Virus record (IMG/VR): IMGVR_UViG_3300046791_000283
Span: 1-64,000 of that record
Strand: one strand, 5' to 3'
Length of the DNA stretch: 64,000 nt
Source: a virus
Lineage: Duplodnaviria > Heunggongvirae > Uroviricota > Caudoviricetes
Position 1 is the stretch's first letter; each line of letters starts with the position of its first letter. The notes beneath the pieces were generated by a model, which was not told the origin of the DNA, searched no databases, and saw only the letters and a list, made by a program, of their open reading frames with translations. Below, in pieces: positions 14,097-61,076 of this stretch. Made by a program: the position numbers and the translations under genes.

Positions 14097-15713
14097 ATGT
14101 CGAAGAAAATTACTTTTGATTCCGCTGCGCATGCAAAACTTAAAATCGGTGTGGATGCCTTGGCTGATGCGGTCAGTGTGACCCTTGGCCCCAAGGGGCG
14201 AAATGTTATCCTGTGTAAGGACTATGGAAGTCCAGCGATCACCAAGGATGGTGTGTCGGTCGCCCGTGAGGTCTTTCTGGAGGATCCGATGGAGAACGCT
14301 GGTGCCCAGCTGGTGAAGGAGGTTGCGAGTAAGACGGCTGAAGCCGCTGGAGATGGAACCACGACTGCAACCGTCCTGGCGCAAGCGATTTATGCGCATG
14401 GATTGAAGAACGTTGCTGCGGGTGCAAATCCAATGGACTTGAAACGTGGAATTGATAAAGCTGTTCTGTTGGTTACGGAGAGTCTAGCCAAGCAGTCTAA
14501 GAAAATAAAATCATCCGAACAGATCCGCCAGGTTGCAACGATCTCATCGAACAACGATGTGGAAATCGGAGGATTGATCGCGGAGGGAATGAAGAGAGTT
14601 GGTATGGATGGGGTGATCACCGTAGAAGACAGCAAGGGTATTGAATCCGAGATCACCGTGGTCGAGGGCATGCGATTTGATCGCGGATATCTTAGCCCGC
14701 ACTTCGTAACCAACACTGAGCGCATGGAGGTCGAAATGACCAACCCCTACGTACTTCTCACGGATAAAAAAATTGCATCGATGCGTGAGATGCTTCCGAT
14801 AATCCAACAAGTGGCGGACACTGGAAATCATCCGCTGTTATTCATTAGTCCCAATGTAGAGGGTGAGGCCCTCGCGACACTTGTTGTCAATAAGATGCGT
14901 GGTGCCCTGCATGTAGCGGCTGTGAAGACTCCGGGATTTGGTGATCGCGTAATGACCGATGCGCTTGAGGATCTCGCGGTGATCACAGGTGGCAAGGTAA
15001 TCAGTGAGATCATTGGATTGAAAATAGAAGAATGCAGACTCGAACACCTGGGTCGGGCAGAGAAAATCATCATCGATAATCAGACCACCACGATCGTCAA
15101 GGGTGCGGGCAAGTCAATCGATGTGAAGGAGCGGGTCGCCCAGGTGAAACACCAGATTGAAAACAGCGAGATTCCCTATGAGAAGGAGCGATTAAAGGAA
15201 CGTATTGCCAAGCTCACCGGTGGAGTGGCGATCTTGTATGTCGGTGCATCGACTGAAGTTGAGTTGAAGGAGAAGAAGGATAGGATTGATGATGCTTTGC
15301 ATGCAACACGGGCTGCAGTCCAGGAGGGCGTGGTACCTGGTGGTGGGGTCGCGTACATCCGCGCGATCGATTCATTGAAATCCGTTGCAGTGGATAATCA
15401 GGATCAGGAAACCGGTGTGAATATTATCCGCCTGGCTCTTGAGGCTCCATTGCGTGTAATCGCTAAAAACTCTGGGGCAGAGGCCTCGGTGGTTGTGGAT
15501 AAGGTACGGTCGCTGAAGAAAACTTTCGGCTACAATGCACGCGATGATAAGTACGAAGAATTCTTTGCGGCCGGCATCATCGATCCTACGAAGGTATCAC
15601 GACTTGCGTTGGAGAACGCGGCTTCGATCGCTGGACTCCTTCTGACTACCGATGTTATTATCAGTGAGATTCCAAAGGATAAACCCGAAGCCAATGGACC
15701 GGTTGCAAGATAA
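14097..15713 (+). CDS. groL: chaperonin GroEL (Cpn60)
   Basis: [39 protein letters not shown], and full 538-aa collinearity with GroEL. Confidence 0.9.
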
Positions 15714-28605: not shown

Positions 28606-30465
28606 ATGGCAAAGAAAAATAGTCACATTACCGTAACAGATCAATTCTGTGGCGCTGGAGGATCTTCGCAAGGAGTCCGTCTGGTAGCACGGGAGAAGAA
28701 ACTCAATACCGGCCTTGAAGTCAAGTTGGCTATGAACCATTGGCCGCTCGCCATTGAAACCCACAATACCAATTTTCCAGATACCGATCACGTGTGCACA
28801 GATATTTCAGCCTGTGATCCTCGGAGGTATCACAGTACAGATATTCTAATCACCTCACCCGAATGTACCGTGCACAGCCCAGCTGGTGGAGGACAGGCGA
28901 AAAAGAAAATGTATGGCAATCAACTCCATACCTCAGGGAAACTTATGTCCGAGATAGCCGAGGAGCGATCCCGTGCTACCATGTGGGATGTTTGCCGTTT
29001 CACTGAGTATCACCGTTACAATATTATTATCGTGGAAAACGTAGTCGAGGCCCGAACCAAATGGGTTCTATTCGACACCTGGTTAATGGCGATGACAAAC
29101 CTCGGCTATGACCACGAAATAAAATACATAAACAGCATGCACGCACATCCGACACCGCAATCACGCGACCGGATGTACTGCGTATTCTGGAAGAAAGGAA
29201 ACAAGAAACCAAATTTGAATCATACCCCTGTGGCTCCGTGCCACAAGTGTTTGAAAACCGTTGAGGCCTACCAGTGGTTTAAACCCCGTGGTAAGCGTAC
29301 CAACCTTCCAGAGAATCATGGGAAATACCGGACTCAGTATTTGTTTAAATGTCCGGACTGTAATTCCGTAGTGGAACCGTACTTCTATGCTGCCTTCAAT
29401 TGTATCGACTGGTCTAAGCCAGGCACACGGATTGGAGATCGTAAGAAACCGCTGAGCCCTAAAACCGAAGTCCGTTGTCAATACGGAGTCGATAAGTTTT
29501 GGGATGAGCCGAGCTTCATTAATGTGAAGTTCTCTTCAGGCGTGGACTTCCGGGTGAAGCCTGTAGCGGGAGAACCTCTGACTACACAGCCGGGAGATGC
29601 TGCAGTTGGGATATTGAATCCGATGATCATTTCATCCAGATACATTCAAGGAATAGGGAACCGCGTGAAGTCAAGTGAACAGGCCTTACCAGTGCAAGTG
29701 ACAGACGGGCGGGAGTCCGTCCTTACGCCTCCTCCGCTGATCATTGGTACGCAGTACAGCAAAGAAGCCAGAGGGGTTGAAAAGAGTTCGCTCGATCCAC
29801 TCAGGGTTCAAACAACGATCACTGACAACGCATTGGTTACACCTCCGCTAATCCTTGACGGTGGATGGAGTGAAGCCAAACCCCGTGTGGACGATGCCTC
29901 GAAGGAACCGATATCAGTACAGGACACTGGGCAGACCAAGGGTGTGGTGATGCCAATGCTGATTAAAAACTATAGTGGGAAGCACAATCCAATCGCTCCA
30001 TCGGAGCAACCTATGGCTTCTGTTACCGCTCAGGATCACCACGGACTTTTGAACGTGCCATTGGTAGTGAATAACCATGGCCAGAGTATGTCAAAGCCAT
30101 CAGCGAATGAGTTGCCATCGCAGACAACGCATCCGAAGTCCGGTATACTTACGGCTGAAAGTTTCAATAGCTTTATATCGTATTTCTACGGTGGATCGAA
30201 TGTAGCCAGCCATATAACCGAAGCCATGCGCACAGTGAGTACAAAGGAGCGGGCCATGCTAATCAATCAGCCGTACGTGAAACCAAGGCTTGAGGATTGT
30301 TTCTATCGGATGCTACTGCCAAATGAGATTCAACTCGGGATGGCCTTCGATGCGGATTACGTAGTCCTGGGGGACTCGAAGCAAAAGGTTAAGCAGTTGG
30401 GTAACGCGGTTACACCTCCGGTAATGAAGTTTTTAGTAGAACGTTGTGTCGAATCACTTTTATAA
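28606..30465 (+). CDS. DNA (cytosine-5)-methyltransferase with large target-recognition insert
   Basis: Motif I FCGAGGSSQG, PC-like TSPECT, ENV (IIVENVVEA), motif X GNAVTPPV. Confidence 0.85.
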   Translation: MAKKNSHITVTDQFCGAGGSSQGVRLVAREKKLNTGLEVKLAMNHWPLAIETHNTNFPDTDHVCTDISACDPRRYHSTDILITSPECTVHSPAGGGQAKKKMYGNQLHTSGKLMSEIAEERSRATMWDVCRFTEYHRYNIIIVENVVEARTKWVLFDTWLMAMTNLGYDHEIKYINSMHAHPTPQSRDRMYCVFWKKGNKKPNLNHTPVAPCHKCLKTVEAYQWFKPRGKRTNLPENHGKYRTQYLFKCPDCNSVVEPYFYAAFNCIDWSKPGTRIGDRKKPLSPKTEVRCQYGVDKFWDEPSFINVKFSSGVDFRVKPVAGEPLTTQPGDAAVGILNPMIISSRYIQGIGNRVKSSEQALPVQVTDGRESVLTPPPLIIGTQYSKEARGVEKSSLDPLRVQTTITDNALVTPPLILDGGWSEAKPRVDDASKEPISVQDTGQTKGVVMPMLIKNYSGKHNPIAPSEQPMASVTAQDHHGLLNVPLVVNNHGQSMSKPSANELPSQTTHPKSGILTAESFNSFISYFYGGSNVASHITEAMRTVSTKERAMLINQPYVKPRLEDCFYRMLLPNEIQLGMAFDADYVVLGDSKQKVKQLGNAVTPPVMKFLVERCVESLL

Positions 30466-31471: not shown

Positions 31472-31848
31472 GAGCCCTTGTAATCGATGAGGCCGCTAAG
31501 GCCAAAGTAGCCACGATGGTTGAGTACGCTGAGCAACATCCATTCAGTATGGATGATCTTCTAGACATTCACAACAAACAATTGGATCCCGCTGGATATC
31601 GGCCAGGTCATTGCGTCCACCTGGATCACGGATTCCGAATTGTGTACTGCATAGAAAACCAAGTTGTTGGACGTATTCGCCATCTCAGCGTTTGCGTTGA
31701 TGCGGATCACGCTCTACCGAATCCAGCGATGGTAAAGGTGATCATGGAACTCATTGGATTCAAAAACGAATTAGAACGATGTGAAGTAAAGATGGAGGAT
31801 ACGAGTCCGGTACGCAAGGCAGTTAACATACTTGAAATCATTAAGTAA
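31468..31848 (+). CDS. hypothetical protein
   Basis: 126 aa. Confidence 0.5.
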   Translation: MRALVIDEAAKAKVATMVEYAEQHPFSMDDLLDIHNKQLDPAGYRPGHCVHLDHGFRIVYCIENQVVGRIRHLSVCVDADHALPNPAMVKVIMELIGFKNELERCEVKMEDTSPVRKAVNILEIIK

Positions 31849-32212
31849 TATGGACTGGGTAAGACTTTCAGAAATAGAGATAGAACTTTTTCGGGAGGCC
31901 CGTAAGTATTGGCCTGTGCTATCAGCCGAAGAAATACACTGTATTGATTTTCCTAACCACACTACTGAATTCATTGAGTTTGTTAATTCTCAGATCCGGA
32001 AACGTCCAAAGTTTGATAAAAATAAATTATCTGTTAAGGCTGTTGGCCAATTCGACTGGGTATTTGAATACGATGGTATTGGAAGATCACCATTGTTATC
32101 AAGACCATTAGTAGCTGAGTCGAAGAGAAAGAAGCTAACCAGAGTACAAGCTCTGATATTTATAATCAAGGAATCCGAATACATTGAATTTGAAACCATA
32201 GGCCATGAGTAG
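31832..32212 (+). CDS. hypothetical protein
   Basis: 126 aa. Confidence 0.5.
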   Translation: MKSLSNMDWVRLSEIEIELFREARKYWPVLSAEEIHCIDFPNHTTEFIEFVNSQIRKRPKFDKNKLSVKAVGQFDWVFEYDGIGRSPLLSRPLVAESKRKKLTRVQALIFIIKESEYIEFETIGHE

Positions 32213-32350
32213 ATATAAATCGCAGCCTGAATATTGGGCACTGAGGTATCTCCGCAAAATGTATCATTGGAGCCTACCTGCGTACAAACCACATCTGAGT
32301 ATTGATAACAAACCATTGGTTGAAAAGCCAAGCAAACCACTAACCAGAGT

Positions 32351-34363
32351 ATGACATTTCAACTCAATAGATTCATAGTATCCGATGTGTTCGATCCAAC
32401 GACCGGACTGGAAAGTATTCCCGATGGAATAGCGGACTGCATCGTAACCAGCCCACCCTATTGGGGTAAGCGTGACTACCGAACCGGAATCTGGTTGAAC
32501 GGTGATCCAAAGTGTGATCACATGCCATCCTCGACTCCAAATGAACGCGGGCTGGCCTCCTCCACACTCAGTGGAGGAAAGAAGTCAACGGGTCACCGCC
32601 AGGAGGGCTTCAAAGGCAGTTGTCCCCGCTGCGGAGCCATCCGGATTGATAAACAACTCGGACTCGAAAAGACTCCAGAGGAATTCATTCAGCGGATGGT
32701 TATCGTATTCCGAGAATGCAAACGAATTCTAAAACCACATGGAACCCTGTGGATCAATATCGGTGATACCTACTGGTCGGGTAAGGGTAAGTCTGGAGCC
32801 GCATGGGATAAGTATAATAATTCTGGTCACATAAATTACAAAGGACAATCGTACGCGGGCTATGGTGAGACCAGACCACAGGACGGTAAGCATCCGATTA
32901 TAAAACCGAAGGATCTCGTAGGAATTCCTTGGAAATTAGCCGAAGCCCTCAGGGCACCATTCTATACTGGTAGAATAACAAATGAACTCGATAGAGTTTG
33001 GATGGCGGCAATGATTGATGGAGAGGGTTGTTTTTTTATTCATAAACGGAAAGCAGGAACCTCATCATATTCAAAATTTAAAAAAGTTGATGGGACTGAG
33101 AATACTTATTTGCGTACAAAAGACACGTATAGTGCAGGGCTAGAAATAACCAATACAGATGAAGCAATCATAAGGCGTATAAAAGATGTTACAGGTTTAG
33201 GCACCATCACAATCCAAACCCCATCACAAAATACTAGACGTGTACAAACCCTATACAGATGGCGTGTTTCTCCAAATGAAGCAAAAAGAATTGCTCAAGA
33301 AACTTATCCTTATCTTATAGGTAAACAACATCAAGCAAGACTTATATTTAATTGCCAGTCAAGTGGTGACTTAGCCTCGCAAGCCCATCAAGCAATTTTA
33401 GATTTACATAATGGAATTAATCCAAAAATTGATTTTCCAGCACCACCTTCTCTATTTGAACCAGGTTGGTATTTAAGGTCTGAGATTATATGGGCAAAAC
33501 GCAATCCGATGCCGGAAAGTGCACAGGATCGCTGCACAAGTTCACATGAACATATTTTCATGCTGTCTAAATCAAAGTCCTATTACTTCGATCGCGTTGC
33601 CATAGCCGAGGAGGTCAAGGACTCCACAGTGAAGCGAACCGCTCAGGATGTAGAGAATCAGAAGGGAAGCGATCGGGCCTACGAAGGCAAGCGACACAAT
33701 GGGCCGATGAAAGCCGTGGTGTCAAAGCACATGAACGTACCGAAGGGATGGGATACTGGTTCAGGTAGTCACGGGAATTTTCACTCCGAAGGAAGGCGTA
33801 AGGATTATGATCATCGCGGAGGTGGAAAGGATAACAAGTTAAGTAAGCATAATGGTAATCTGGACGAGGATGGTAATCTGATCGGAGACGGTATTGCTAA
33901 TAAGCGCGATGTCTGGTCGATGAGTACTCAACCCTATAAGGGCGATCACTTTGCCACATTCCCAGAGGAACTTCCAAGGAATTGTATTCTGGCCGGTACA
34001 TCGGCTAAAGGAAATTGTCCGCACTGTGGTAAGCCTTGGGTACGAATCAGTAAAAAAGAGTTTGTTACCCGCGATGCTACTGAAAGAGAACCAGAGAGAG
34101 ATGATTTAATAAAGCACGGATTACCCAGAGGAGAAAATATTGTGCGGACTATCGGCTGGAAGCCATCGTGTAAATGCAATAAACCCGGAGAACTCACACG
34201 GCCAGTTGTATTCGATCCCTTTGGAGGCACTGGCACAACACCCGTTGTAGCCGATCAACTCGGTAGGGACTGGTTGGCCATGGAGCTTTCGCAGGATTCG
34301 ACCAATCAGGCACACCGGAAATTAAGAAACAAATTAGGTCCACTGTTAACTCAAAACTTATAA
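32351..34363 (+). CDS. beta-class DNA methyltransferase (N6-adenine or N4-cytosine) carrying an in-frame LAGLIDADG-like insertion
   Basis: Motif IV TSPPY near the N-terminus and motif I FDPFGGTGTT near the C-terminus; EIIWAKRNPMPES and HEHIFMLSKS are typical of beta-class MTases. Confidence 0.8.
   Translation: MTFQLNRFIVSDVFDPTTGLESIPDGIADCIVTSPPYWGKRDYRTGIWLNGDPKCDHMPSSTPNERGLASSTLSGGKKSTGHRQEGFKGSCPRCGAIRIDKQLGLEKTPEEFIQRMVIVFRECKRILKPHGTLWINIGDTYWSGKGKSGAAWDKYNNSGHINYKGQSYAGYGETRPQDGKHPIIKPKDLVGIPWKLAEALRAPFYTGRITNELDRVWMAAMIDGEGCFFIHKRKAGTSSYSKFKKVDGTENTYLRTKDTYSAGLEITNTDEAIIRRIKDVTGLGTITIQTPSQNTRRVQTLYRWRVSPNEAKRIAQETYPYLIGKQHQARLIFNCQSSGDLASQAHQAILDLHNGINPKIDFPAPPSLFEPGWYLRSEIIWAKRNPMPESAQDRCTSSHEHIFMLSKSKSYYFDRVAIAEEVKDSTVKRTAQDVENQKGSDRAYEGKRHNGPMKAVVSKHMNVPKGWDTGSGSHGNFHSEGRRKDYDHRGGGKDNKLSKHNGNLDEDGNLIGDGIANKRDVWSMSTQPYKGDHFATFPEELPRNCILAGTSAKGNCPHCGKPWVRISKKEFVTRDATEREPERDDLIKHGLPRGENIVRTIGWKPSCKCNKPGELTRPVVFDPFGGTGTTPVVADQLGRDWLAMELSQDSTNQAHRKLRNKLGPLLTQNL
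32990..33480 (+). other. LAGLIDADG-like domain inserted in-frame in the methyltransferase; AT-rich patch
   Basis: WMAAMIDGEGCFFIH resembles LAGLIDADG; segment sits between the conserved GIPWKLAEALRA and GWYLRSEIIW blocks; local AT content clearly above flanks. Confidence 0.5.
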
Positions 34364-34365
34364 CT

Positions 34366-35658
34366 ATGAGCTACGATAATTTCAAATGCTGGTTTCGGAT
34401 CCGGGAGAAAAAATCCCCGGATATCGAAGTCGTTGTTACAACCGCTATTAAAAAGAAAACCGGTTCCTCTAAAGTAGAGGGCATGCGTACCCTTGGTATG
34501 GCAATCCCCGAGGGAGCCCGTTGGGGAGGAAAGAAAGATTGGGTAATCGGTATCGATGATGAGAGCCTCCAGATTAACCAGGCGCTCAGCACGATCAAAA
34601 AAGGTCTGCACACCCGTTACCTTAAAATGAAGAATGACAAACAGATGGAGCCCATACCGGTTGATGTCATTCGGGCTTACTTCGATGAAACCTCCACTGT
34701 GTCCAAAGGACTCATCGAACTCATCGATGAGTACCTGTTAGCAAAACGATTGGCTATTAACACAGCCAAGGTCTATCAGTTGAATATTCGAAGTCTATTG
34801 ACTCGATTTATTCCAACTGAATTCCAAACACCCGATGTAAGCATTGAACGCATCGATACTCCGTTCCTATACCGGCTGGAGATATTCATCCGCAAGTCAC
34901 CGAAAAGTAAAAGTGGAAAGCCGTTCGCTGAGAGTACGATTCGTGAATACATTGGTAAGGTAAAGGCGATTGTAGAGTACGCGATCAGCGTGGGATATGT
35001 ACGTGAACGATTAACCGAACAGTATCAGGCGAAGAAGTTTGGTAAGATTGAAAACCAATCGTTTGAACGTCTTGTGAGTCCGGATGATTTATTAAAGATT
35101 GAAACAATCGAGGTCCCCGCACCAGGCAATCCTATGAAACAGAAATACCATAGGTACGTTGTCAAGAAATGGCGTATGCGATTACTCTTTCTATTTCAAC
35201 GCTGGACCGGACTCTCTTATGCCGATCTGGTTGCCATCGGTAGTAATATCCGTAATCACATTCAAACCGATATGTCCGGGAAGAAAAGCATTGTGTATCA
35301 AAGGCAGAAGAGTGGAGTCATGGCGATCATCCCATTGTTTCCACAGACCGAAGCCCTCCTGGAGAAACTCGAATACAATATCTATCCGATGGAAACCTAT
35401 GAGGCTACGTACGGGACGGTCAGAAGTATGTTCAAGTGGTATGGATTCCCCTACTGGAAAGAAGTTGGTACGCACACCGGCCGACACGTTTTCGGAATTG
35501 AAATGCTTACGATGGGATTTAGTATGGAGGCTGTATCCCGGATGATGGGTCACCAGAATATTGAGGAGACTCAGAAGGTTTATGCGAGAATCGATATGAC
35601 TAAAATCAATGTTGATTTGGATCGGATTAATCTGCGAATCAAAATCACAGGTAGTTAA
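34366..35658 (+). CDS. int: tyrosine recombinase / integrase (Bacteroidota-type, long N-terminal arm domain)
   Basis: GTHTGRHVF (R..HxxR) and HQNIEETQKVYARI (catalytic Tyr). Confidence 0.85.
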   Translation: MSYDNFKCWFRIREKKSPDIEVVVTTAIKKKTGSSKVEGMRTLGMAIPEGARWGGKKDWVIGIDDESLQINQALSTIKKGLHTRYLKMKNDKQMEPIPVDVIRAYFDETSTVSKGLIELIDEYLLAKRLAINTAKVYQLNIRSLLTRFIPTEFQTPDVSIERIDTPFLYRLEIFIRKSPKSKSGKPFAESTIREYIGKVKAIVEYAISVGYVRERLTEQYQAKKFGKIENQSFERLVSPDDLLKIETIEVPAPGNPMKQKYHRYVVKKWRMRLLFLFQRWTGLSYADLVAIGSNIRNHIQTDMSGKKSIVYQRQKSGVMAIIPLFPQTEALLEKLEYNIYPMETYEATYGTVRSMFKWYGFPYWKEVGTHTGRHVFGIEMLTMGFSMEAVSRMMGHQNIEETQKVYARIDMTKINVDLDRINLRIKITGS

Positions 35659-48755: not shown

Positions 48756-51700
48756 TTAAAGATACACTATTGCTTCAAGTTCGCGTATACTCCGGAATAT
48801 CTGATTTCTAGTCTGGATGGCCTCGGCTTCCTGCTCTCCTTCAACCTGATCACTATAATCCTGCATCAAAGCCTCAATTTCACCTATGGAATCGTTTATT
48901 TCGTATAAACGATCGGCCTCCTCCTGTGAATATTCTATCCGCTCCTCCTCAAGGGCTTTAATTTTCTGCTGATTTTCCTTCTTAATTTCATAGTAGAATT
49001 GCACCTGGCGAGAGGCCTCAAAGTACAATTCCTTGGTGAAGATATCGCCAAAGCCATACGCACCCTCCTTACCAGTCACATATTTAACCGCCCGACCAAA
49101 CGTCCCCTCCAGGAAGTGATCTATTTTCTTTGGGCTCCATCCCAGCTTTTCACCCATGAATACCGCTACCGTACTTGTGTACTTGTTGTACCGTAGCTCT
49201 GGAGGCAAGGAAAGATCTTTCTGCGACTCTATTGGACGTACGGTCGGATAGGTCTTTTGACCCGTGGCCACCTCCACCGATGGCTTAACCGCCTGTGGTA
49301 GGTAGGAGAATAGCATCTGATATCCTGCGAACGGATTGGCCTGGGTTGGTAAGAATGATAAACTCGCTTGCCCATACTCACTCCATTTGTAATCGGTTTG
49401 ACCAGCATTCTCAATCAACATCATATTCAACATACTACTTAACCAAGCAAGTTGATCTGGAATGCGAATTTGAACTAGTCTCTTCTTACTGTATGGGTTC
49501 GGAAGAAACAAATACTTACTCATGGTCTCCGGAGGGATGGCTTTGATCAATTGCTTTTGCTCATCATCATCATCCATACCCAATAGATATAATACCGATC
49601 CAACCGATGCCGCTGTAATCGAAAACACTGCAACAGCAAACCGAATCCTACCCTCCTTGGTCTGTAGTGCATTACGATTCTGAATCAACACCTGTAACGA
49701 TGAATTGAAGTATGGTAAACTCCTAACATACGATTGTCCAATTTTACCACCGAGCCTGCCCGTATGATGGAATGGTGCCGATACCCTACCGGCTTCTTCA
49801 AGCGCTACAGCCTGGTGCTTCCCAGCCTTACGCGCACGAATGTATTCGGTTCCCCTGGTGAATATTTCCGAAGCATTTCCCGGAGTGCTCATAACCTTTG
49901 CAATAAAATCAAAGAACCCAGCCAGGCGGTCGGTCCACTGTTTCTTATTACCCAGAATAACATCGTTAAGATTTTGTGTCGATGCAACATCGGCACTCAA
50001 GAACGTCTGCGATGTACCGGCCAAGAACATATACTCCTTCAGGTAAGCCGCTTCAACCGATCCCTTACTCAGGATGGCCTTACCCATTTCAATCGATGAG
50101 GTTACGAAGGGAAACATTCCATTGCGTGTGTTAACCGATGCGATAGCCTGGTCAAGGAAAATGTTGTTAGCAAAGAATTGCCAGAATAGTCCGGTCGTAC
50201 CGGCACGGAATACCTGGGCCATGGAGACCCCGACCTTTTCAATTAAGTGGTGATTGTGATACGAATAGTTCTCATCCAGCACGGCTTTCATTTGAGCGTT
50301 AGCCAAAATGGGCACGCGCTTGCCATCCTTACGAGCCATAATGATATTCGGATCCTTCTCCTGTGGATAACGATTCCTTGGATCCTCCGACACCTCCAAT
50401 GGTACAACCTGGAATACTGGTGCCAGGTCTTTCTCATTCGCCTCCACCATGCCCAATATCTTATTATACACCATCTGCTTCATCCCTTTGTTAAGCATTT
50501 CGGTGTGTGCAACCATGGAACTCATCAACGGACTGATAATGGCCTTCTCACTACCACGTCTGGACATAAACTGGCTAGCCTTTGTTTTACCTGATTGACG
50601 AATCTTTGGTATATCGTTCTCCCCAACGATTTCATCGTAGAAAGCACGCTTCAATGGAGTGTATCCCTTCTTAGCTGATAGTCGACTGTACGCTGTATCA
50701 TCGATCATTTGAACCAATGGGTTCACAGCAAAGTCAAGATTCTCCCGAGTAAGCTTATCGTACATCTTCACCTCTTCTTCAAATAAACGATTACCCTCAG
50801 TGAATGCCTCCTCGGATTCCTTCTCACTCACACCTTCCTTTTTAAGCAATGCCTCCATATCCGCGATATCCTTCTTTAATTGTTCGGACTGTATCCGCGC
50901 AAATGTTTCGGCTTGCTGCTGCGAGATACTCATGGACTTCATTATGTCGGCCACATAGGTTGGAGCCTGTACTTTAGCCAGTTCGGCTTCAAGTCGGTGC
51001 TGCTCATCGTAATCGTATTTGATTCGTCTGCCATACAGGTAAGCATCGAACTCATCGAGCATACCACGTTTCTCCAATCCGTTTACTATGGTGTAAAAAT
51101 TGAAATCGTGCTTCTTGAAGAACTCACCCGTAGGGCTCATGGAATAAAACTTCTGAGCTTTCGATGAAATGTTCTTCTGGGCCATCTGCAAATAATTATT
51201 CGATAGCCTTATAAATATCGATACGTCTTCCTGTGTGAAGTGAGTCCCATGGATCTTCGCAAGTTTCTCATACGGATAAAGAGAATCGAACAATGTTTTT
51301 GTGATCTGATCGGACTTACTTAAGAAGGGTGCGGTTTCCCCGAGATCCTCTGCGCTCTCATTCACAATCCGTGCACTCATCTTAGCCAATGGATCTAATG
51401 ATTGATAGGTCTGAATGACCTTATCCACATCCTTCATAAACTCCTCTACCTGCGGAACATAATACTTTCCTCCGGGTTCAAGGAATTCCTTAACCAATTC
51501 TGGGAAATCCTTCCGGATCTCTGCCGGTTGTTCCAGGTACTTCTGAACCAATGTCGCATACCCCTCAACCATTCTTCGATATAGATCGTGACCCGGCTGA
51601 GCTTTTGGATAATACTTCAGATACAAATTAGTTAGCTGCTGACGGAACGGATCCGCAGCCTGAGTATTCTTTATAAAATCACTCACCACACTATTCTGCT

Positions 51701-54700
51701 TATCCAACGCATGTGTAAGCTCGTGCATTACCACGCTGAGTGAATTCAACCCTTTAACGCGCACGTTAGTTGATCCACGATAGAATACACCGAGGTTTCC
51801 ACGACCGGTTTTATCCTGACCCAGTGTGGCATCCGGATTATACTTCTTAGCCAATTCTATAGCCTTCCGATAGAGTTTAATCGGGATCGGTTGTGGTTCG
51901 ATGGCTCTGCCTTCGAATTCACCGATAGGTGCCGCACCTTTTGAAGCATCTGAAGTCTGAGCAAAGAAATCAGGTTCCTTGATCTCTTCCTCGGGTACCG
52001 CTGCCGGTGGGGTCTCATCCGATGGAATCTTTTCTTCCGGGGTCCTACGGACCGCTCCAACTGGAGTGGTATCTGTAGCTGTCTCAGTTTTCTTACCAAT
52101 CGGTGCTACCGGAGTGAATAGTCCGAATTGTTGTTTATCACCTTCTTTGGCTCTTTGAATATCAGTAGTGAGTTTCACCAACTGATTGTTAAGATTTTTT
52201 AATTGCCCTTCGATCTCCTGGAGACGCGATGGCTGCGGGGGATCCTTCTTATTGAACCTCTCCTTCTCAAGTGCTTGGATTTCCTTCTTAACCTGGTCGT
52301 ACTCATCTACCATCTGGGACTCATTAAATCCACGGGTCGTACGGTTCTCAAGGTTTAAAGGCTGATTTGGATCAGCCAAGAAAGAAACGTTATTAACAAC
52401 ACTGTCAAGGCGATCAATAAAATCCGCCCGGGTCGTAAGTTTCTTACCTGTTCCATTGACTAAATATTCATGTAGTTCGTTTTCCTGTGAATCGGTCAGC
52501 TGGGGAAAACGCTTACGCGCTTCTCCAATAAATTCTCCGACCTGCATTACTCGGCCCTGACCCTCTGTGGTTTCAGACTTCTGCACCGCCTTAATCATAT
52601 CCCGGGTCTGTCCACCCTTCTTCAAATAACTAAATAGGACCTCACGTTTAGTTGTGCTGAGCTTCTTTTTCACTTCCGATTCACTCATACCCTCCGATCT
52701 ACGCTTGGCTATAAGCTTAGCGCGATCCAAAACAGTTTCTTGGGTTGCAGCCTTATTCGATCGTTCGGTTGCAAATGCGATCGCATCGGCCTCACTCTTA
52801 CTCGAAGCGTCTACAGCATCAATGGTTTTGAAGTTTTCAAACCCCTGTGCACGCATCTTCTCCATGGCCGCCTCAGGTATTTCCCCAGCCTCCAATTTCT
52901 TCTGTAGTTCACGGAAGGCCTCGGTACGTGAGTGACCGGCTAACACATAGGTTTTATCGTTCTTAGGATCCGTCCAAGTGCGTACGGGATCGAACTCGGT
53001 TACATCGAATTTACCCTCCATAACCGCGTCAACGATCTTCTGCACGCTTTCCTTCGAATAGTCCTCCTCACGGGCTTGGAATCGCTCCAAATCAACGTTG
53101 ATATCCTCTACGGGTTTAGCCTCAACCCTTACCCTTGCTTTCGGTGCGACCTTAGCTTGCTCTGTTTTACTTTCTCCGGGAGGGCCTTGAGATTCTGTTG
53201 ATACTCCTTCGCCCACCGGTGCGCTAGTTCCGGCTTCTTCAGAAACAGGAACCTCTGCTGGGATTTGCTCTTGAATGGCATCTTCTACTGGTTTAGTTTC
53301 CGGTGTTACCGCTGCCGGTGGTGCCTGTATCTCCTCCGCCTTCGGTAAAACCTCGTCTTCAATAAATTTCTTAATTTCTTCCTTTGGCCTGGTGTCACCA
53401 TACTTCGTAGCAACATCGGCCACACTGTCTACAAAGTTTTCATACGATTGCTTATCCTCAGGCACGCTGGTTTTCTTCAATCGGTTAAGAAAATTAGCTT
53501 TTGATAAAGCCGTTGCTCCCTGGCCAGCTGCCGATATCCCGGCCCCACCAATAGCTCCAGCGATACCCTCATCGATCGCTTGTAACCAATCGATATTCTG
53601 AACAGCCTCAGTGGTACCGAGTCCGGTCATTTTACCAACAGCGGTTTGCTGCAGCGCTGACTGTGTGGATTCAGTTAACAATTCAACCCCACCGGCTTCA
53701 CTTGACTTTCTTATCCAGCTGAGTGCGCGATCACGTAGATCCCTACGGAATCCCTTTATACCTATAGAACCAGCCACCTTACCCGCACCCACACTATCCA
53801 GTGCCCCCTGAATGATACCAAAGTTCCGTGCGATTACCGGTTCATCCATATCCTTCCTGATAACCTCCTCGGGAGTCATTTTATTTTGATTCGCGATCTC
53901 CGTTACACCATCGAGATAGTTATTACCAACCTCCTGGAGATACGATGTGGTTCCCCTACTATAAATCGATGGAATGATTTGAGCCGCTCCCTGTCCAACG
54001 GATGAGAATACAAAATCAATTACATCCAGTGGCTTCTTAATTTGCGAAATGCTTTGAATTAGATTCTTATCATTAGCAATTAACATGGGGACTCCGTTCA
54101 TGCCCGGTACCATGTGAATAGGAGCCTTTCTCCATTCCTGGGCCCAGTCGAATACGGCTACCCTGGCATTATCAACATGCTCGTTAACCGTCTCTTTAGC
54201 ACCTGGTATCTGCGAAACAGCCTTCTTAAACTGACTGACCACACCGGGTTTATACCATGGTCTATTTTCGTCCTCAGGCTTGATTTTAAGATCAGCTAAG
54301 ATATTTGATATGGTTGCACCGGTGGAGGCGGGCAATTCGAAGCCAAGTGTTTTCGTAACGGCCTTACCAAAGGAACCGAATATACGATCCGTGATATCCT
54401 TATTATCCTGAATAGCTTTCGTCCGCATAATCTGATCATACGATTGCCCAGTCAATAATTTGGATAGATCATCCGTATCAACATCTATATCCATTGGAAT
54501 TAATACCCCTTGATCAACAAGTTTTGCTTTATCGGGATTATTTTGCTTGAAAACTTCATTCCTGATTTCTTGAATCTTCTTATCATCCAATCCAAGTGTT
54601 TCAAATAATTTTTCCTGACGAGCACTATTGAATTCAAGATATTGATCACGCTGATCTTTAGCTAGAGTTTGAAGAGATTGTATCTGTTTATACTTCTTAT

Positions 54701-55313
54701 TCCCAGCTGCCAACGCATTATTATACTCACCGACTAATCCTTGATATTGTTTTACTTTTTCGTAATCAGTGAAAGTATCGGGGTTGTTTTCATTTAATGA
54801 TTTTTCTAAATCTTTCAACGATTGATGTTCCAGATTGTAATCGTGTAACATCTTATTGTATTGAACAACATTCAAATTATGTCGATCAACCTGATTCTGA
54901 TCTTTAGTATTCACTTTAGCCTCATCAAGAGTCTTTTTATATGAAGAAATTTCTTTCTCACGACCCTTAATATTTTCTAACGACTCATTGTATTTAGAAA
55001 GTGATTCATTGTACTGTTTAAGCTTACTTGGATCGGTAAAATTTGATGGATCTATACCACCTAAGGTACCCTCAATAGATCTAACTTTAGTTACATCTTG
55101 TTCGTAACCTTTAATAAGCTCGTCTAATTGAGTAAGTGATTTTTTATATTCAAGTGCCGGGGACGTGGGCTCTCCAATAGTCGAGGAATCTACTCCATCG
55201 ACTTTTTTTTTTAATGGTTCTTCACCCTCTGGTACGAAATCAATAGTCTTACCAGTCTTAGGTTTATCGTCCTCTATGGGTGTGAAGTCAATATTTTTTA
55301 ATTTCTTTCCCAT
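48756..55313 (-). CDS. 2185-aa polyvalent protein with ParB-like and zincin HExxH domains
   Basis: ParB/Srx motif VLAGHSRTEAFREL at about 52930-52950; HExxH VVMHELTHALD at about 51710-51740; K/E-rich coiled-coil N-terminus; TM helix near the C-terminus. Confidence 0.8.
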   Translation of the reverse strand: MGKKLKNIDFTPIEDDKPKTGKTIDFVPEGEEPLKKKVDGVDSSTIGEPTSPALEYKKSLTQLDELIKGYEQDVTKVRSIEGTLGGIDPSNFTDPSKLKQYNESLSKYNESLENIKGREKEISSYKKTLDEAKVNTKDQNQVDRHNLNVVQYNKMLHDYNLEHQSLKDLEKSLNENNPDTFTDYEKVKQYQGLVGEYNNALAAGNKKYKQIQSLQTLAKDQRDQYLEFNSARQEKLFETLGLDDKKIQEIRNEVFKQNNPDKAKLVDQGVLIPMDIDVDTDDLSKLLTGQSYDQIMRTKAIQDNKDITDRIFGSFGKAVTKTLGFELPASTGATISNILADLKIKPEDENRPWYKPGVVSQFKKAVSQIPGAKETVNEHVDNARVAVFDWAQEWRKAPIHMVPGMNGVPMLIANDKNLIQSISQIKKPLDVIDFVFSSVGQGAAQIIPSIYSRGTTSYLQEVGNNYLDGVTEIANQNKMTPEEVIRKDMDEPVIARNFGIIQGALDSVGAGKVAGSIGIKGFRRDLRDRALSWIRKSSEAGGVELLTESTQSALQQTAVGKMTGLGTTEAVQNIDWLQAIDEGIAGAIGGAGISAAGQGATALSKANFLNRLKKTSVPEDKQSYENFVDSVADVATKYGDTRPKEEIKKFIEDEVLPKAEEIQAPPAAVTPETKPVEDAIQEQIPAEVPVSEEAGTSAPVGEGVSTESQGPPGESKTEQAKVAPKARVRVEAKPVEDINVDLERFQAREEDYSKESVQKIVDAVMEGKFDVTEFDPVRTWTDPKNDKTYVLAGHSRTEAFRELQKKLEAGEIPEAAMEKMRAQGFENFKTIDAVDASSKSEADAIAFATERSNKAATQETVLDRAKLIAKRRSEGMSESEVKKKLSTTKREVLFSYLKKGGQTRDMIKAVQKSETTEGQGRVMQVGEFIGEARKRFPQLTDSQENELHEYLVNGTGKKLTTRADFIDRLDSVVNNVSFLADPNQPLNLENRTTRGFNESQMVDEYDQVKKEIQALEKERFNKKDPPQPSRLQEIEGQLKNLNNQLVKLTTDIQRAKEGDKQQFGLFTPVAPIGKKTETATDTTPVGAVRRTPEEKIPSDETPPAAVPEEEIKEPDFFAQTSDASKGAAPIGEFEGRAIEPQPIPIKLYRKAIELAKKYNPDATLGQDKTGRGNLGVFYRGSTNVRVKGLNSLSVVMHELTHALDKQNSVVSDFIKNTQAADPFRQQLTNLYLKYYPKAQPGHDLYRRMVEGYATLVQKYLEQPAEIRKDFPELVKEFLEPGGKYYVPQVEEFMKDVDKVIQTYQSLDPLAKMSARIVNESAEDLGETAPFLSKSDQITKTLFDSLYPYEKLAKIHGTHFTQEDVSIFIRLSNNYLQMAQKNISSKAQKFYSMSPTGEFFKKHDFNFYTIVNGLEKRGMLDEFDAYLYGRRIKYDYDEQHRLEAELAKVQAPTYVADIMKSMSISQQQAETFARIQSEQLKKDIADMEALLKKEGVSEKESEEAFTEGNRLFEEEVKMYDKLTRENLDFAVNPLVQMIDDTAYSRLSAKKGYTPLKRAFYDEIVGENDIPKIRQSGKTKASQFMSRRGSEKAIISPLMSSMVAHTEMLNKGMKQMVYNKILGMVEANEKDLAPVFQVVPLEVSEDPRNRYPQEKDPNIIMARKDGKRVPILANAQMKAVLDENYSYHNHHLIEKVGVSMAQVFRAGTTGLFWQFFANNIFLDQAIASVNTRNGMFPFVTSSIEMGKAILSKGSVEAAYLKEYMFLAGTSQTFLSADVASTQNLNDVILGNKKQWTDRLAGFFDFIAKVMSTPGNASEIFTRGTEYIRARKAGKHQAVALEEAGRVSAPFHHTGRLGGKIGQSYVRSLPYFNSSLQVLIQNRNALQTKEGRIRFAVAVFSITAASVGSVLYLLGMDDDDEQKQLIKAIPPETMSKYLFLPNPYSKKRLVQIRIPDQLAWLSSMLNMMLIENAGQTDYKWSEYGQASLSFLPTQANPFAGYQMLFSYLPQAVKPSVEVATGQKTYPTVRPIESQKDLSLPPELRYNKYTSTVAVFMGEKLGWSPKKIDHFLEGTFGRAVKYVTGKEGAYGFGDIFTKELYFEASRQVQFYYEIKKENQQKIKALEEERIEYSQEEADRLYEINDSIGEIEALMQDYSDQVEGEQEAEAIQTRNQIFRSIRELEAIVYL

Positions 55314-57136: not shown

Positions 57137-57895
57137 TTAAGCGTTAAAGCCACTGAACCATTCAGCACTGTTGTCAATAGTTGTAACAGGATTTGGTTTA
57201 ACGCCTCTCCTGCGATTCAAAAAATTAAGTGCTCCTGTATTCTTTCCGCCAACATCTAGTGCATAGAGATTCATTAGATTTTCAGTAAGCCCGTTAAAGG
57301 CATTGAATTTATTTTGCAACGATGATCCGATGAGTGCTGATTTTGCCTGATTATAATTTTCAAATGAAGCCCTCTCGTGACCAGCCTGAACTCCAAGGGT
57401 TTGATTCAACCGTCCCTTTGCATTAGCCCGATATCCTTCATTGGCCACTTCTAAATCCTTAAGAACTTCCTTCTCCCGTGCATCAGCATCGGCTACAGAT
57501 TGCTGAATGGTTCCAGCGTTTTTAGTTCCTCGCATTGTTCTAGCGATCGTATTAGCTGAAGATGTACGGAGTTTATCAACCGTTCTACCATAACCTGGTG
57601 CAACGCTTGCGTTGGCATCTATTCTGGCACCGGCCACGGCCTCCTGAACAGATGGAGGAATATAATTACTTGGCTTAATCTTCCCTGCTAACTTTTTCTG
57701 CTTATCACCCTGATATTTTTGATATGCAGAGGTGGCCAGTGTGGTTAAAATTGGGATCAATGGAGCGATCATCGCTATATCGCGCTTCTTAATAAAAAGA
57801 AGACTGATTGCACTCCAAATGAACAGGGAACTCAGGATGTATATTTCCATGGTGTTAAAGTTAAACAGAAAATTCCTCAGTCTTAAAGACCACAT
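57137..57895 (-). CDS. virion-associated protein with N-terminal TM segment (hypothetical)
   Basis: 252 aa. Confidence 0.5.
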   Translation of the reverse strand: MWSLRLRNFLFNFNTMEIYILSSLFIWSAISLLFIKKRDIAMIAPLIPILTTLATSAYQKYQGDKQKKLAGKIKPSNYIPPSVQEAVAGARIDANASVAPGYGRTVDKLRTSSANTIARTMRGTKNAGTIQQSVADADAREKEVLKDLEVANEGYRANAKGRLNQTLGVQAGHERASFENYNQAKSALIGSSLQNKFNAFNGLTENLMNLYALDVGGKNTGALNFLNRRRGVKPNPVTTIDNSAEWFSGFNA

Positions 57896-60800
57896 TCACA
57901 TGGCTCATCTGAGCCTTATCCAGTCGATCTGTTTCGACCTCAATTTCAGCATAATTTGACACAATATCATCACCGGAACGTAATGCTAATTGCCCCTCCA
58001 TCACCTCTGTATTCGTATCCTTTAAGATAGCAGCGGTCCAGATGCCCTCATCTAGCTCAAATTCATAGGCTGGTATAATGGATTCCTGGCCCTCAGGGGT
58101 GGTGATTCTAACCGGAATAAATTCACTCGTTGGATCTGTACACAGTGCCCCTTTGATATGAAAATTTAAATACCTCTTATTCTTACCCAATAAGGCATTA
58201 GAAACAAACTTCCATTTTCTGGTGTACTGAACTCCAAAGAAATTATTGTGGATTGGATTAACATTCTGTAACCACAACTTACCATCTTTAAATGCTACCA
58301 GGTCCGTGTTAAGACTGCAATACATTTCTGGGATGAAACTGTACCGTGTTTGCCATTCCTTAGATTCAATATTAAATGCCCAGGTTTCACCGGCCACAAT
58401 GATTGCATCGAATTGGTCACGGACATCTGGAAATGTAATGAGTAGTTCACCATTCAAATAATCGAATGCCGTAATCACCTTTATTTCATTTCGGTAAGGA
58501 AAATAATCCCTTGACTTCTTGAAGAAATCATAGGTCTTGCCATAATTACTAATTGGATATAACCCGGAAGCAGAATATTGAATCACAGCCCCCTGTAAAC
58601 CATCCCACCAAAAAGCGAAACCAAATACACGGATCATGGATTCGGGATTAATCGTACCATAGTTCAAAGCCATCTCACGATCATCACCAACCACATTATC
58701 TGTTTGAACTAAAATGAAATCATTCTTCTGCTGACGCATAAAACTCTCACCAACATAAAGTGAAGAGGTAAAGCGCTCATGCACTGCTACCAACACTCCA
58801 CTGACCTTAATAGCACCACGTACAGGTCCTCTTTCTATTGCTAGCGTATACTGATTAGTTGCCAAAAACGAATTAAGCCCATTGATAAATGAATTTTGAA
58901 CATAAGGATTTGAAAATCCAAAAGTACTGTAGATATCAACCTCACGTTCTTTAAAAATTGTATGAGGAATACCAAGATCGGAGGCAATCTTATTATAATC
59001 AAATGTAGACACTGGTACAGTTGCCCTGAATAATCCTGTGTCGGAACCAGATGTAGCCTCTCCTATGGTAACTGATTGCGTCCCACTTGTGGCATAAATT
59101 GGACTCGGTGTCTCCACTGGAAATTCAAACCATCGGCCATTGATCACATTTCGCCAATTTCCTGAAATAGGAGCGAATTCTCCTGATTCAAATAAATCAG
59201 AGAAAGTAACATCACCATACATCGTTCCCCTCAACCCACCTCCACGCTGCGTCACTACATACGTATCTCCTTCAAGGTTTCCGTTAAGCACAGTAAACTC
59301 ATCGTTTTGTATTGGGTGGATAACACCGGTCTCATTGAATACAACATTTTCTGATTCAGTTGGTTTGAATACCTCAATTCCTATCCCAGAAGCCGCTGCA
59401 TATCCAAAAAAATCATTTCCAGAACCATCGTGGACAAGAAACTCGGGGGCCGCTTCAATCACTAGGAAATCACCGATTACATCGATAACCTTATAAAACT
59501 TAGTTGCTATCGAGCTTATTAAAAACCTGACAAAGAAACCCGGTGTAACCGCAGAAGGAATATTAATTGGTGTTTGAATGTAAAGAAATCTAGTCTCCTC
59601 AAGATGATCGTACCCACCTAAATTCAAGAACACCTTCCCTCTCCAGTTTAAATAATAACTATGCGTAGCGTTATCGTTTCCATCTGGTGTTGATAATTCT
59701 CTAACATAAAAATGCACTGCTGCAAATGTTTGAAAATGCACTGACTGAAATTTATTCTTTGTCAATACAATATGGTACTTACTAAATCCTGGTGGTGGAG
59801 ATCCGGTCAATGCCCATTGAATAAATTTTCTATTATCACGTCTGAATTTATACTCACGTGTATCAGCTGGATCAATGTAATAAGGGACTGTTATTGTTTT
59901 TGATCTTTTTACAAAAGTCCTTCCTCCATAATCAGCTTCAAAAACAACACCAACGCTATAAACCCCACCTTCTTTTAAATATTTAATATTTGGATAAGTA
60001 TCATCCGTGTTCTCTGATCCCAATGTTATCTCAAGATCAAAGGTTGATTCATCGATATTAAAACCGGTTTTATTCAATGGAGTAAACACCCTGTTTTCTA
60101 CTATTTCTAAAGCATTAGTAATCTTTGGGATGTAGTCATACACACGAAGTTGATCGTCTTTAGAAACAGCTGTGGATTTCCCGTTATTAGTAAAATCAAC
60201 CGTATAGCTATTCCCTCCAATGGGATTGTCTACTTCTTCAAAAATGAAGTAATCTCCAGTATTTCCTTTTCTGTATGCAAAGTTGATTCGCTTAACAAGT
60301 CCAGATAATTCTAACGGTAGATTGGTTGTCACCTTTATAGTGTTGTACTCTTGGCCTGGTACTATGGTTACCTCAAATCCTGAATTAGTTATGAGATCAA
60401 AATTTTCATAAGGCCTGATCCAAGCGAGCTTACTCAGAGAACTAAATGTAGAGTACCTATCATCGTGGTAAACAAATTGACACGCAAATTGCCAGGTGTT
60501 ATCAAAAATTCTATTGATAGTTAAGGTGTTATCAAAATGCAAGATAATCGTTGGTGCAGAAGGTGGTTTGGTAGCCAGGGAAAGTTGATATTGAGAATAC
60601 GGGGCCACATAACCTCCTGCTCTTGCTTTTGAAAGGCTGATTGATCTGGGTGAATTAAAAGCATCGTTTGAAATCCAAAGATCATCGATGCATCCGCCCT
60701 GAGTAATCAAATGATTTTCATCAAATCCAAGGCTGCTACCATACAATAGGGTTGTAAACACACCGGTATCAACAAACCACTCAAATACCCTGTGGTCAAG

Positions 60801-61076
60801 ATTACTATTCCATACGCAGAATATTATTGAGTTATCCTTAGTATTAACAAATCGACCAATTGTCTTATTTGTTCCAGCTGGAAGTGAATTGTCTTTTAAA
60901 ATATTTCCTGGAGTTGATTCTAGAAGGCCGCGGGCACCATTACTTGTCTTATACCTACAGTTTACAGCATCGAGCAGATCTCCGGGAAGAAACATGCGAT
61001 TCCCATCTCTTCCCACAGCGCCAGGTGAGAAGTCTTTATTAATTCTATTTGGGACATATTTTTCAATCTGCTGCAT
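57861..61076 (-). CDS. large tail / receptor-binding protein (hypothetical), 1071 aa
   Basis: Long beta-rich protein typical of tail fibre or baseplate proteins; position in the structural module. Confidence 0.55.
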   Translation of the reverse strand: MQQIEKYVPNRINKDFSPGAVGRDGNRMFLPGDLLDAVNCRYKTSNGARGLLESTPGNILKDNSLPAGTNKTIGRFVNTKDNSIIFCVWNSNLDHRVFEWFVDTGVFTTLLYGSSLGFDENHLITQGGCIDDLWISNDAFNSPRSISLSKARAGGYVAPYSQYQLSLATKPPSAPTIILHFDNTLTINRIFDNTWQFACQFVYHDDRYSTFSSLSKLAWIRPYENFDLITNSGFEVTIVPGQEYNTIKVTTNLPLELSGLVKRINFAYRKGNTGDYFIFEEVDNPIGGNSYTVDFTNNGKSTAVSKDDQLRVYDYIPKITNALEIVENRVFTPLNKTGFNIDESTFDLEITLGSENTDDTYPNIKYLKEGGVYSVGVVFEADYGGRTFVKRSKTITVPYYIDPADTREYKFRRDNRKFIQWALTGSPPPGFSKYHIVLTKNKFQSVHFQTFAAVHFYVRELSTPDGNDNATHSYYLNWRGKVFLNLGGYDHLEETRFLYIQTPINIPSAVTPGFFVRFLISSIATKFYKVIDVIGDFLVIEAAPEFLVHDGSGNDFFGYAAASGIGIEVFKPTESENVVFNETGVIHPIQNDEFTVLNGNLEGDTYVVTQRGGGLRGTMYGDVTFSDLFESGEFAPISGNWRNVINGRWFEFPVETPSPIYATSGTQSVTIGEATSGSDTGLFRATVPVSTFDYNKIASDLGIPHTIFKEREVDIYSTFGFSNPYVQNSFINGLNSFLATNQYTLAIERGPVRGAIKVSGVLVAVHERFTSSLYVGESFMRQQKNDFILVQTDNVVGDDREMALNYGTINPESMIRVFGFAFWWDGLQGAVIQYSASGLYPISNYGKTYDFFKKSRDYFPYRNEIKVITAFDYLNGELLITFPDVRDQFDAIIVAGETWAFNIESKEWQTRYSFIPEMYCSLNTDLVAFKDGKLWLQNVNPIHNNFFGVQYTRKWKFVSNALLGKNKRYLNFHIKGALCTDPTSEFIPVRITTPEGQESIIPAYEFELDEGIWTAAILKDTNTEVMEGQLALRSGDDIVSNYAEIEVETDRLDKAQMSHVNVVFKTEEFSV

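Follow-up and report, generated by a model that had tools for sequence, protein, structure and literature searches.

To spare their host, homing endonuclease genes are thought to depend on a self-splicing intron or an intein, or on lying between genes. An in-frame 'second LAGLIDADG homing endonuclease' was described by Gosselin, Arsenault, Jennings & Gogarten (2023) in nine cluster-F actinophage methylases, e.g. gp79 of Mycobacterium phage Taj (PMC9957025). The Taj-type domain forms its own domain, and no strong evidence of its transfer was obtained (PMC9957025). In the ShiLan domain, an HNH endonuclease lies hidden, out of frame, within a phage methylase gene (Arsenault et al. 2025, PMC11855218). 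Taj gp79 is the closest precedent for the locus analysed here: it is likewise a phage methylase of the PF01555 family with a LAGLIDADG segment in frame and no splicing domain, and the segment is predicted to form a separate domain that leaves the methylase intact.

The window analysed (64,000 nucleotides, positions 1 to 64,000 of IMG/VR record IMGVR_UViG_3300046791_000283) is part of a tailed-phage genome and encodes a portal protein, a large terminase, a virion structural protein, a DnaB-type helicase, a GroEL-like chaperonin and a tyrosine integrase. The features of the methyltransferase gene and its insert were located as follows.

32351 to 34363, plus strand: host gene, an open reading frame for a beta-class N4/N6 DNA methyltransferase (motif IV before motif I) of 670 aa, with the frame continuous through the insert.
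32447 to 32461, plus strand: motif IV TSPPY (aa 33-37), catalytic; SPPY is kept in insert-bearing and insert-free homologs.
32936 to 32956, plus strand: upstream flank, helix LAEALRA ending at aa 202, the equivalent of (V/L)AFAL(R/Q)A in insert-free alleles.
32957 to 33463, plus strand: insert of 169 aa (aa 203-371), predicted to be a complete single-motif LAGLIDADG domain with a C-terminal helical extension, in DNA of low GC3.
32999 to 33031, plus strand: LAGLIDADG motif WMAAMIDGEGC (aa 217-227), which aligns to WLVGFIEAEGC of I-AniI and WLAGFVDADGC of I-CvuI.
33305 to 33343, plus strand: helix YPYLIGKQHQARL with K325, which aligns to the K98 helix of I-CreI, QPFLKLKQKQANL; K325 is the counterpart of K98.
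33464 to 33520, plus strand: downstream flank GWYLRSEIIWAKRNPMPES, starting with GWYLRS at aa 372, a conserved methyltransferase strand and catalytic-loop motif.
34214 to 34240, plus strand: motif I DPFGGTGTT (aa 622-630), AdoMet binding.

The methyltransferase reading frame matched PF01555 (N6_N4_Mtase) with 123 bits (cut-off 26.7) and phrog_67 with an E-value of 4.4e-55. With a family score above the cut-off and motif IV lying N-terminal to the FxGxG of motif I, the protein belongs to the beta class, and the observation of an in-frame LAGLIDADG-like insert in such an enzyme, made in a preliminary description of this DNA, was confirmed by the family match, the motif and the borders. The SPPY form of motif IV is typical of N4-cytosine enzymes among the beta-class methyltransferases. 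An AlphaFold2 model of the full-length protein (670 aa, pLDDT 76.8) superposed on the N4-cytosine methyltransferase 8s9m across the insertion (TMt 0.65), and the insert was its best-predicted part (93-98). Together, the SPPY motif and this structural match of the model suggest N4-cytosine as the modified base.

The borders of the insert were set by alignment to 117 insert-free homologs, methylases of 360-540 aa that made up 117 of the 119-120 best matches to a query from which the insert had been deleted. At the site these read LAFALRA-D-GWYLR(QD). Since the insert-free homologs have a single loop residue (D) there, the 169 aa replace a one-residue loop. The alignment with uninterrupted homologs that had been proposed as a check thus fixed both boundaries; the earlier placement at 32990-33480 with a length of about 165 aa had been close but inexact, the true values being 32957-33463 and 169 aa. 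The empty site was highly conserved in 72 distinct IMG/VR loci, where PW(R/M)(V/L)AFAL(Q/R)AD stands before the insertion point and GWYLRQDIIW after it. An example from close insert-free alleles reads GCNTTYGCNYTNCRNGCNGAY up to the insertion point and GGNTGGTAYCTNCGNCARGAYATHATHTGG beyond it. A palindromic target is what a homodimeric enzyme would favour. In the 72 loci the empty site showed no clear dyad symmetry around the insertion point: the palindrome score was 0.34 at +3.5 nt from that point (mean 0.25, sd 0.08), and other centres scored higher.

The motif helix of the insert ends in a conserved acidic residue followed by Gly, as in LAGLIDADG proteins. E225 is the counterpart of the catalytic Asp/Glu (D20 of I-CreI, E148 of I-AniI) and is kept in 156 of 158 insert-bearing proteins, G226 being kept in 157 of them. 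K325 is invariant (158/158), and its helix was matched to the K98 helix of I-CreI and I-CvuI by hhalign and hmmsearch, weakly but consistently. The Pfam model LAGLIDADG_1 gave the insert 20.6 bits, under the curated cut-off of 23.1, so that membership was not obtained with the curated model. A profile search of PDB sequences with the insert returned weak matches (E 0.018-0.14), and a profile comparison of the insert with I-CreI aligned the K98 helix alone, at low probability. Since the sequence-level matches to known LAGLIDADG enzymes were weak, a fold comparison was needed to establish the relationship. The insert also matched phrog_5046 (E 1.5e-19), a family that has no curated cut-off; its label 'HNH endonuclease' looks like a mislabel, because GenBank names the same phage proteins LAGLIDADG endonucleases.

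The AlphaFold2 model of the insert, built on an alignment of 13 diverse inserts, had a pLDDT of 93.5 and showed the order alpha-beta-beta-alpha-beta-beta-alpha, the single-motif fold of the I-CreI type, followed by two extra C-terminal helices. In the model the two chain ends are paired, as expected of a domain inserted into a loop, and the LAGLIDADG fold accounts for all 169 aa. The predicted structures thus showed the insert as a complete LAGLIDADG-type domain that folds separately from the methylase.

A LAGLIDADG segment inserted in frame at a conserved position in a phage methylase resembles the actinophage methylase inteins (PMC9957025), and the insert could accordingly be read as an intein, or as the degenerate mini-intein suggested earlier, that is spliced from the methylase. 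Those LAGLIDADG-bearing inteins are also in frame, lie in a conserved region, occur sporadically and have a phylogeny unlike that of the host gene (PMC9957025). The earlier judgement that the insert is too short for a full intein was borne out, and its check of the splice-junction residues found none. The Hint splicing domain (blocks A, B, F and G) is absent, and no Hint or intein family was matched. The insert starts with Pro203 and ends with Glu370-Pro371, followed by the invariant Gly372, without a Cys/Ser/Thr nucleophile or a His-Asn pair. With these features lacking and a LAGLIDADG fold filling the segment, splicing from the methylase is so improbable that we set it aside; unlike an intein, the insert should stay in the mature protein.

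Nor do the data favour the proposal that a recent disruptive insertion, or an intron-like element, has inactivated the gene. The DNA is compositionally foreign, as such an event would leave it, but the reading frame is continuous and the methylase motifs are kept across the 158 insert-bearing proteins: SPPY, IIWxKxNPMPE and DPFxGxGT are as conserved in these as in the insert-free proteins. The full-length model also predicts a methylase fold plus a separate domain. Inactivation is therefore considered very unlikely. A gene borne on a group I or group II intron was rejected as well, since a scan of 31500-35000 with Rfam found no intron or other RNA family at E <= 1 and the 670-codon frame is unbroken. 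The other frames of the insert contain no ORF longer than 57 aa, by which a hidden nuclease ORF of the ShiLan type was ruled out.

The GC content of the insert was 0.363, compared with 0.49 and 0.47 on either side of it in the methyltransferase gene, and its GC3 was 0.19, compared with 0.49 and 0.45 (0.47 jointly). The AT-richness noticed in the preliminary description is therefore real, and it lies mostly at synonymous sites. None of the 852 stretches of 169 codons drawn from 34 long ORFs of the window had a GC3 as low as that of the insert (minimum 0.225, z = -3.3). An unsupervised two-boundary change-point in GC3 within the ORF fell at codons 205-372 (202-372 fitted equally well), with a log-likelihood ratio (LLR) of 22.8 that 0 of 100 permutations reached, and lay no more than 2 codons from the domain borders defined by homology. 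Among related loci, the GC3 of the insert was under that of the flanks in 26 of 32 (mean -0.06, p = 7e-4), a weaker tendency than here. The best reading of these values is that this phage obtained the insert independently of the rest of the gene, from a donor richer in AT; the composition fits the separately acquired mobile element that had been proposed. The closest inserts in the sample are about 64-70% identical to that of the window, and no close donor is among them. The neighbouring C5 methylase (28606-30465), with a uniform GC3 and a middle part of 320 aa that matches no family, showed no sign of an insertion.

At least 158 metagenomic phage methylases were found to carry this domain at exactly the same site. 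Among 1.84 billion representatives, a profile search gave 68 clusters (50% identity) at E < 1e-30; nearly all are proteins 400-740 aa long that have the domain in their interior. The search also gave free-standing relatives of 150-250 aa, together with several thousand more distant LAGLIDADG proteins. One free-standing relative (P0170) is a complete ORF of 154 aa on its own contig. IMG/VR contained 41 insert-bearing loci, and the GTDB species genomes only 5, all in metagenome-assembled genomes. In 50,697 deposited phage genomes (INPHARED) no insert-bearing homolog was found, the matches being only distant free-standing LAGLIDADG genes and insert-free methylases. From this absence among deposited isolate phage genomes it follows that the family lives in uncultured phages. 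A word-index protein search with the insert alone gave no match.

The best 119 full-length homologs (36-57% identity) all carried the segment at the same place, and at first it therefore seemed that every homologous methylase might contain it as a native domain of ordinary composition, the case that had been named as speaking against a mobile insert. The closest core relatives lack the segment, however, and its composition is unusual. When the insert was deleted from the query, ranks 1-38 of the phmmer search were all insert-free. With the insert removed, the window methylase had its closest core matches among the insert-free methylases, ahead of every insert-bearing protein; the core identity of the top five insert-free proteins exceeded that of the top five insert-bearing proteins by 0.035 (bootstrap 95% interval 0.015-0.060). 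In neighbour-joining core trees (275 columns), which are distance trees of insert-bearing and insert-free sets gathered with different queries, the sister group of the window methylase was wholly insert-free in 98 of 100 bootstraps, and presence or absence of the insert required 24-50 changes, compared with about 89 when the labels were shuffled. The nearest neighbour was insert-free for 46 of the 158 insert-bearing proteins.

Insert and methylase also differed in their histories. Two proteins (P0032 and P0050) have inserts that are 93% identical between flanks that are 42% and 58% identical; in another pair (L009 and L037) the flanks are 65-75% identical and the inserts 41%. Over 12,403 pairs, insert identity and core identity were correlated with a Spearman rho of only 0.40. 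As judged from these comparisons, the insert would rank as a mobile element, being sporadic at one conserved site and having a phylogeny incongruent with that of its host gene, and it appears to move between divergent methylase alleles of uncultured phages.

The main rival to a homing element is a domesticated module, which would serve the methylase in DNA binding, dimerisation or target recognition and would have spread by ordinary homologous recombination because it is useful. Such a role would fit the better conservation of the domain compared with the methylase flanks (57% and 41% identity to the query, respectively) and the conservation of the C-terminal extension, which is dispensable for the LAGLIDADG fold. 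Loss of the catalytic acidic residue is usual in domesticated LAGLIDADG domains, but here nearly all members keep it and the K98 equivalent is kept as well. The methylases closest in the core do without the domain. Repeated gain and loss, histories that disagree and a foreign codon composition are what marks a selfish element. The domesticated DNA-binding module named in the preliminary description thus lost ground through the retention of the active site and the patchy, incongruent distribution, and it is retained as a rival to which a minor, though appreciable, share of the probability is given.

The insert is probably a non-splicing, in-frame selfish homing-endonuclease element, a predicted nuclease that the methylase tolerates in a surface loop; this is the explanation we prefer, with moderate confidence. 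By analogy with enzymes of the I-CreI type, we infer nuclease activity, dimerisation, a target site and homing as the mechanism of transfer. The segment would be kept at the RNA and protein level and translated as part of the methylase, and would fold as an autonomous I-CreI-like LAGLIDADG domain. It would project from the one-residue surface loop between the helix ending in ALRA and the strand starting with GWYLR, so that the methylase would stay functional. Two fusion proteins may then pair through their LAGLIDADG helices, and the pair may cut the uninterrupted site, i.e. the DNA for AFAL(R/Q)AD and the following GWYLRQDIIW, in the related methylase gene that a co-infecting phage or prophage carries. 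The cut gene would then gain a copy of the insert when it is repaired from the interrupted allele.

A single-chain nuclease-methylase was also considered, in which the LAGLIDADG domain would cut unmethylated DNA of the host or a competitor while the methylase protects the phage DNA. Both active sites are apparently intact in one polypeptide, as read from the sequence, and for the Taj_79 domain this alternative was raised by Gosselin et al. (PMC9957025). Restriction enzymes with a LAGLIDADG fold are not known, however (PMC9957025). LAGLIDADG enzymes recognise long, rare sites, and patchy presence at one precise, conserved coding site fits homing better; a cutting-and-protecting enzyme of this kind is thus improbable. 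Hardly less doubtful is the broader, speculative claim that the fusion is a working two-activity enzyme rather than a parasite and its host. If the fusion were such an enzyme, with cutting coupled to or blocked by its own methylation, a restriction-modification-like or competitor-exclusion system based on a LAGLIDADG nuclease would be seen for the first time. In a milder reading, the family would give the first clear evidence that LAGLIDADG homing elements can spread and persist in frame without splicing, a plausible pre-intein state.

Read as a non-splicing homing element, the family suggests another solution to the problem of sparing the host: a complete LAGLIDADG domain that resides permanently in a tolerant loop of a methyltransferase and apparently still moves between alleles. 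It would offer a testable system for asking whether homing can proceed without splicing, how inteins originated and how the methylase fold tolerates a domain insertion. It also supplies new, compact LAGLIDADG scaffolds, for which the empty methylase site is the predictable target.

No paper describing an in-frame LAGLIDADG-methylase family of at least 158 members was found in a literature search, and the locus was compared with the systems nearest to it. In Taj gp79 the domain lies directly after DPPY (aa ~55-195), and the site used here is uninterrupted there (IEDAGFELRDSIAW, with GFELRDSIAW intact). The Taj domain shares 26% identity with the window insert over 90 aa and passes Pfam LAGLIDADG_1, unlike the window insert. 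The combination of the same site and the same endonuclease lineage that marks the Taj_79 type was thus not found for the window insert. For the Taj type, nine related phages are known, whereas the family described here is spread among uncultured phages in a patchy and incongruent manner. In Gordonia phage Ailee and its relatives, a related LAGLIDADG protein (25% identity, with a shared HPFL.MKQEQARL helix) also lies within a phage methylase gene, but that gene encodes a two-piece C5 methylase (PF00145), and the endonuclease has an ORF of its own in a different frame, inside an annotated join.

Like the window insert, the ShiLan domain is inserted into a phage methylase gene without splicing, is read through in frame and shows homing-like behaviour (PMC11855218). 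It differs in that its HNH endonuclease is encoded in another frame, whereas in the window insert it is the in-frame product that forms the nuclease-type domain. The homodimeric enzymes I-CreI, I-MsoI and I-CvuI are free polypeptides from group I introns; the domain described here is a permanent internal part of the host enzyme, has no intron RNA, and carries in addition the C-terminal helical extension that brings its two ends together. The family can be regarded as a much larger representative of a kind of element that was recognised recently, to which it adds bioinformatic evidence of mobility and, in this phage, an unusually sharp compositional scar.

The LAGLIDADG insert of the beta-class DNA methylase had a lower GC3 than the flanks of its own methylase in 26 of 32 loci (L001-L037, IMG/VR), and the related phages behind this comparison ranged from 31 to 72% GC. 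Candidate explanations for the systematically low GC3 are that homing genes typically show an AT bias, that codon selection is relaxed, or that the insert was imported repeatedly from AT-rich donors. Within the window, only the insert was lower than two further stretches, which had a GC3 of 0.22-0.24 over 169 codons and may be horizontally exchanged modules. These stretches and other genes of the window were located as follows:

57861-61076, minus strand: virion structural protein gene, low-GC3 stretch at codons ~250-510
48756-55313, minus strand: 2185-aa ORF without a PHROG match, low-GC3 stretch at codons ~70-240
34366-35658, plus strand: tyrosine integrase gene (Phage_int_SAM_5 and Phage_integrase)
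28606-30465, plus strand: C5-cytosine MTase, a second orphan methylase (619 aa; PF00145, E 8.7e-26)
14097-15713, plus strand: phage-encoded GroEL-like chaperonin (phrog_5725, E 8.5e-167)

The integrase gene starts 3 nt past the methylase stop codon. A temperate lifestyle is thus probable for this phage, and a shared transcript for the two genes is possible. The C5-cytosine MTase gene lies 1.9 kb upstream of the insert-bearing methylase. Its GC3 was uniform (~0.5), so a foreign insertion was not indicated; the central ~300 aa (aa ~200-517) had no match to any family and could form a long or multispecific target-recognition region.

P0266, a homolog found with the insert-deleted methylase and otherwise free of the insert, carried an insertion of ~46 aa (…ALQGRCVIPGESLNNAADLLRQARETKDW…GPYWLR) that was different from and unrelated to the LAGLIDADG domain, in exactly the same loop as window nt 32956/33464. 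The loop therefore tolerates, or attracts, other insertions.

Five Cys and His residues of the insert (Cys227, His231, Cys335, His346, and His353) were kept in 135-152 of the 158 insert-bearing proteins. They lie outside the canonical LAGLIDADG active site and may constitute a structural metal site through which the C-terminal extension is tied to the core fold. Outside the insert, the methylase had two zinc ribbon-like Cys clusters, for which Pfam zinc-ribbon matches were no better than weak; the first was kept in insert-free homologs. The positions were:

33029-33409: Cys/His set of the insert, aa 227, 231, 335, 346, and 353
32513-32635, plus strand: first Cys cluster, CDH…CPRCG, aa 55-95
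34016-34177, plus strand: second Cys cluster, CPHCG…CKC, aa 556-609

Proteins named LAGLIDADG endonuclease by GenBank submitters were labeled HNH endonuclease in RefSeq and PHROGs (phrog_5046, the family matching the insert; NC_070783, NC_055773, and others). The HNH label appears to be an annotation error, and it would conceal the insert-type LAGLIDADG family from keyword searches. In Gordonia phage Ailee (L043; MH976507, 2119-3993), the C5 methylase gene was annotated as a two-piece join, and gene 5 was a LAGLIDADG endonuclease ORF inside it in another frame. The gene 5 protein was a distant relative of the window's insert, sharing 25% identity.
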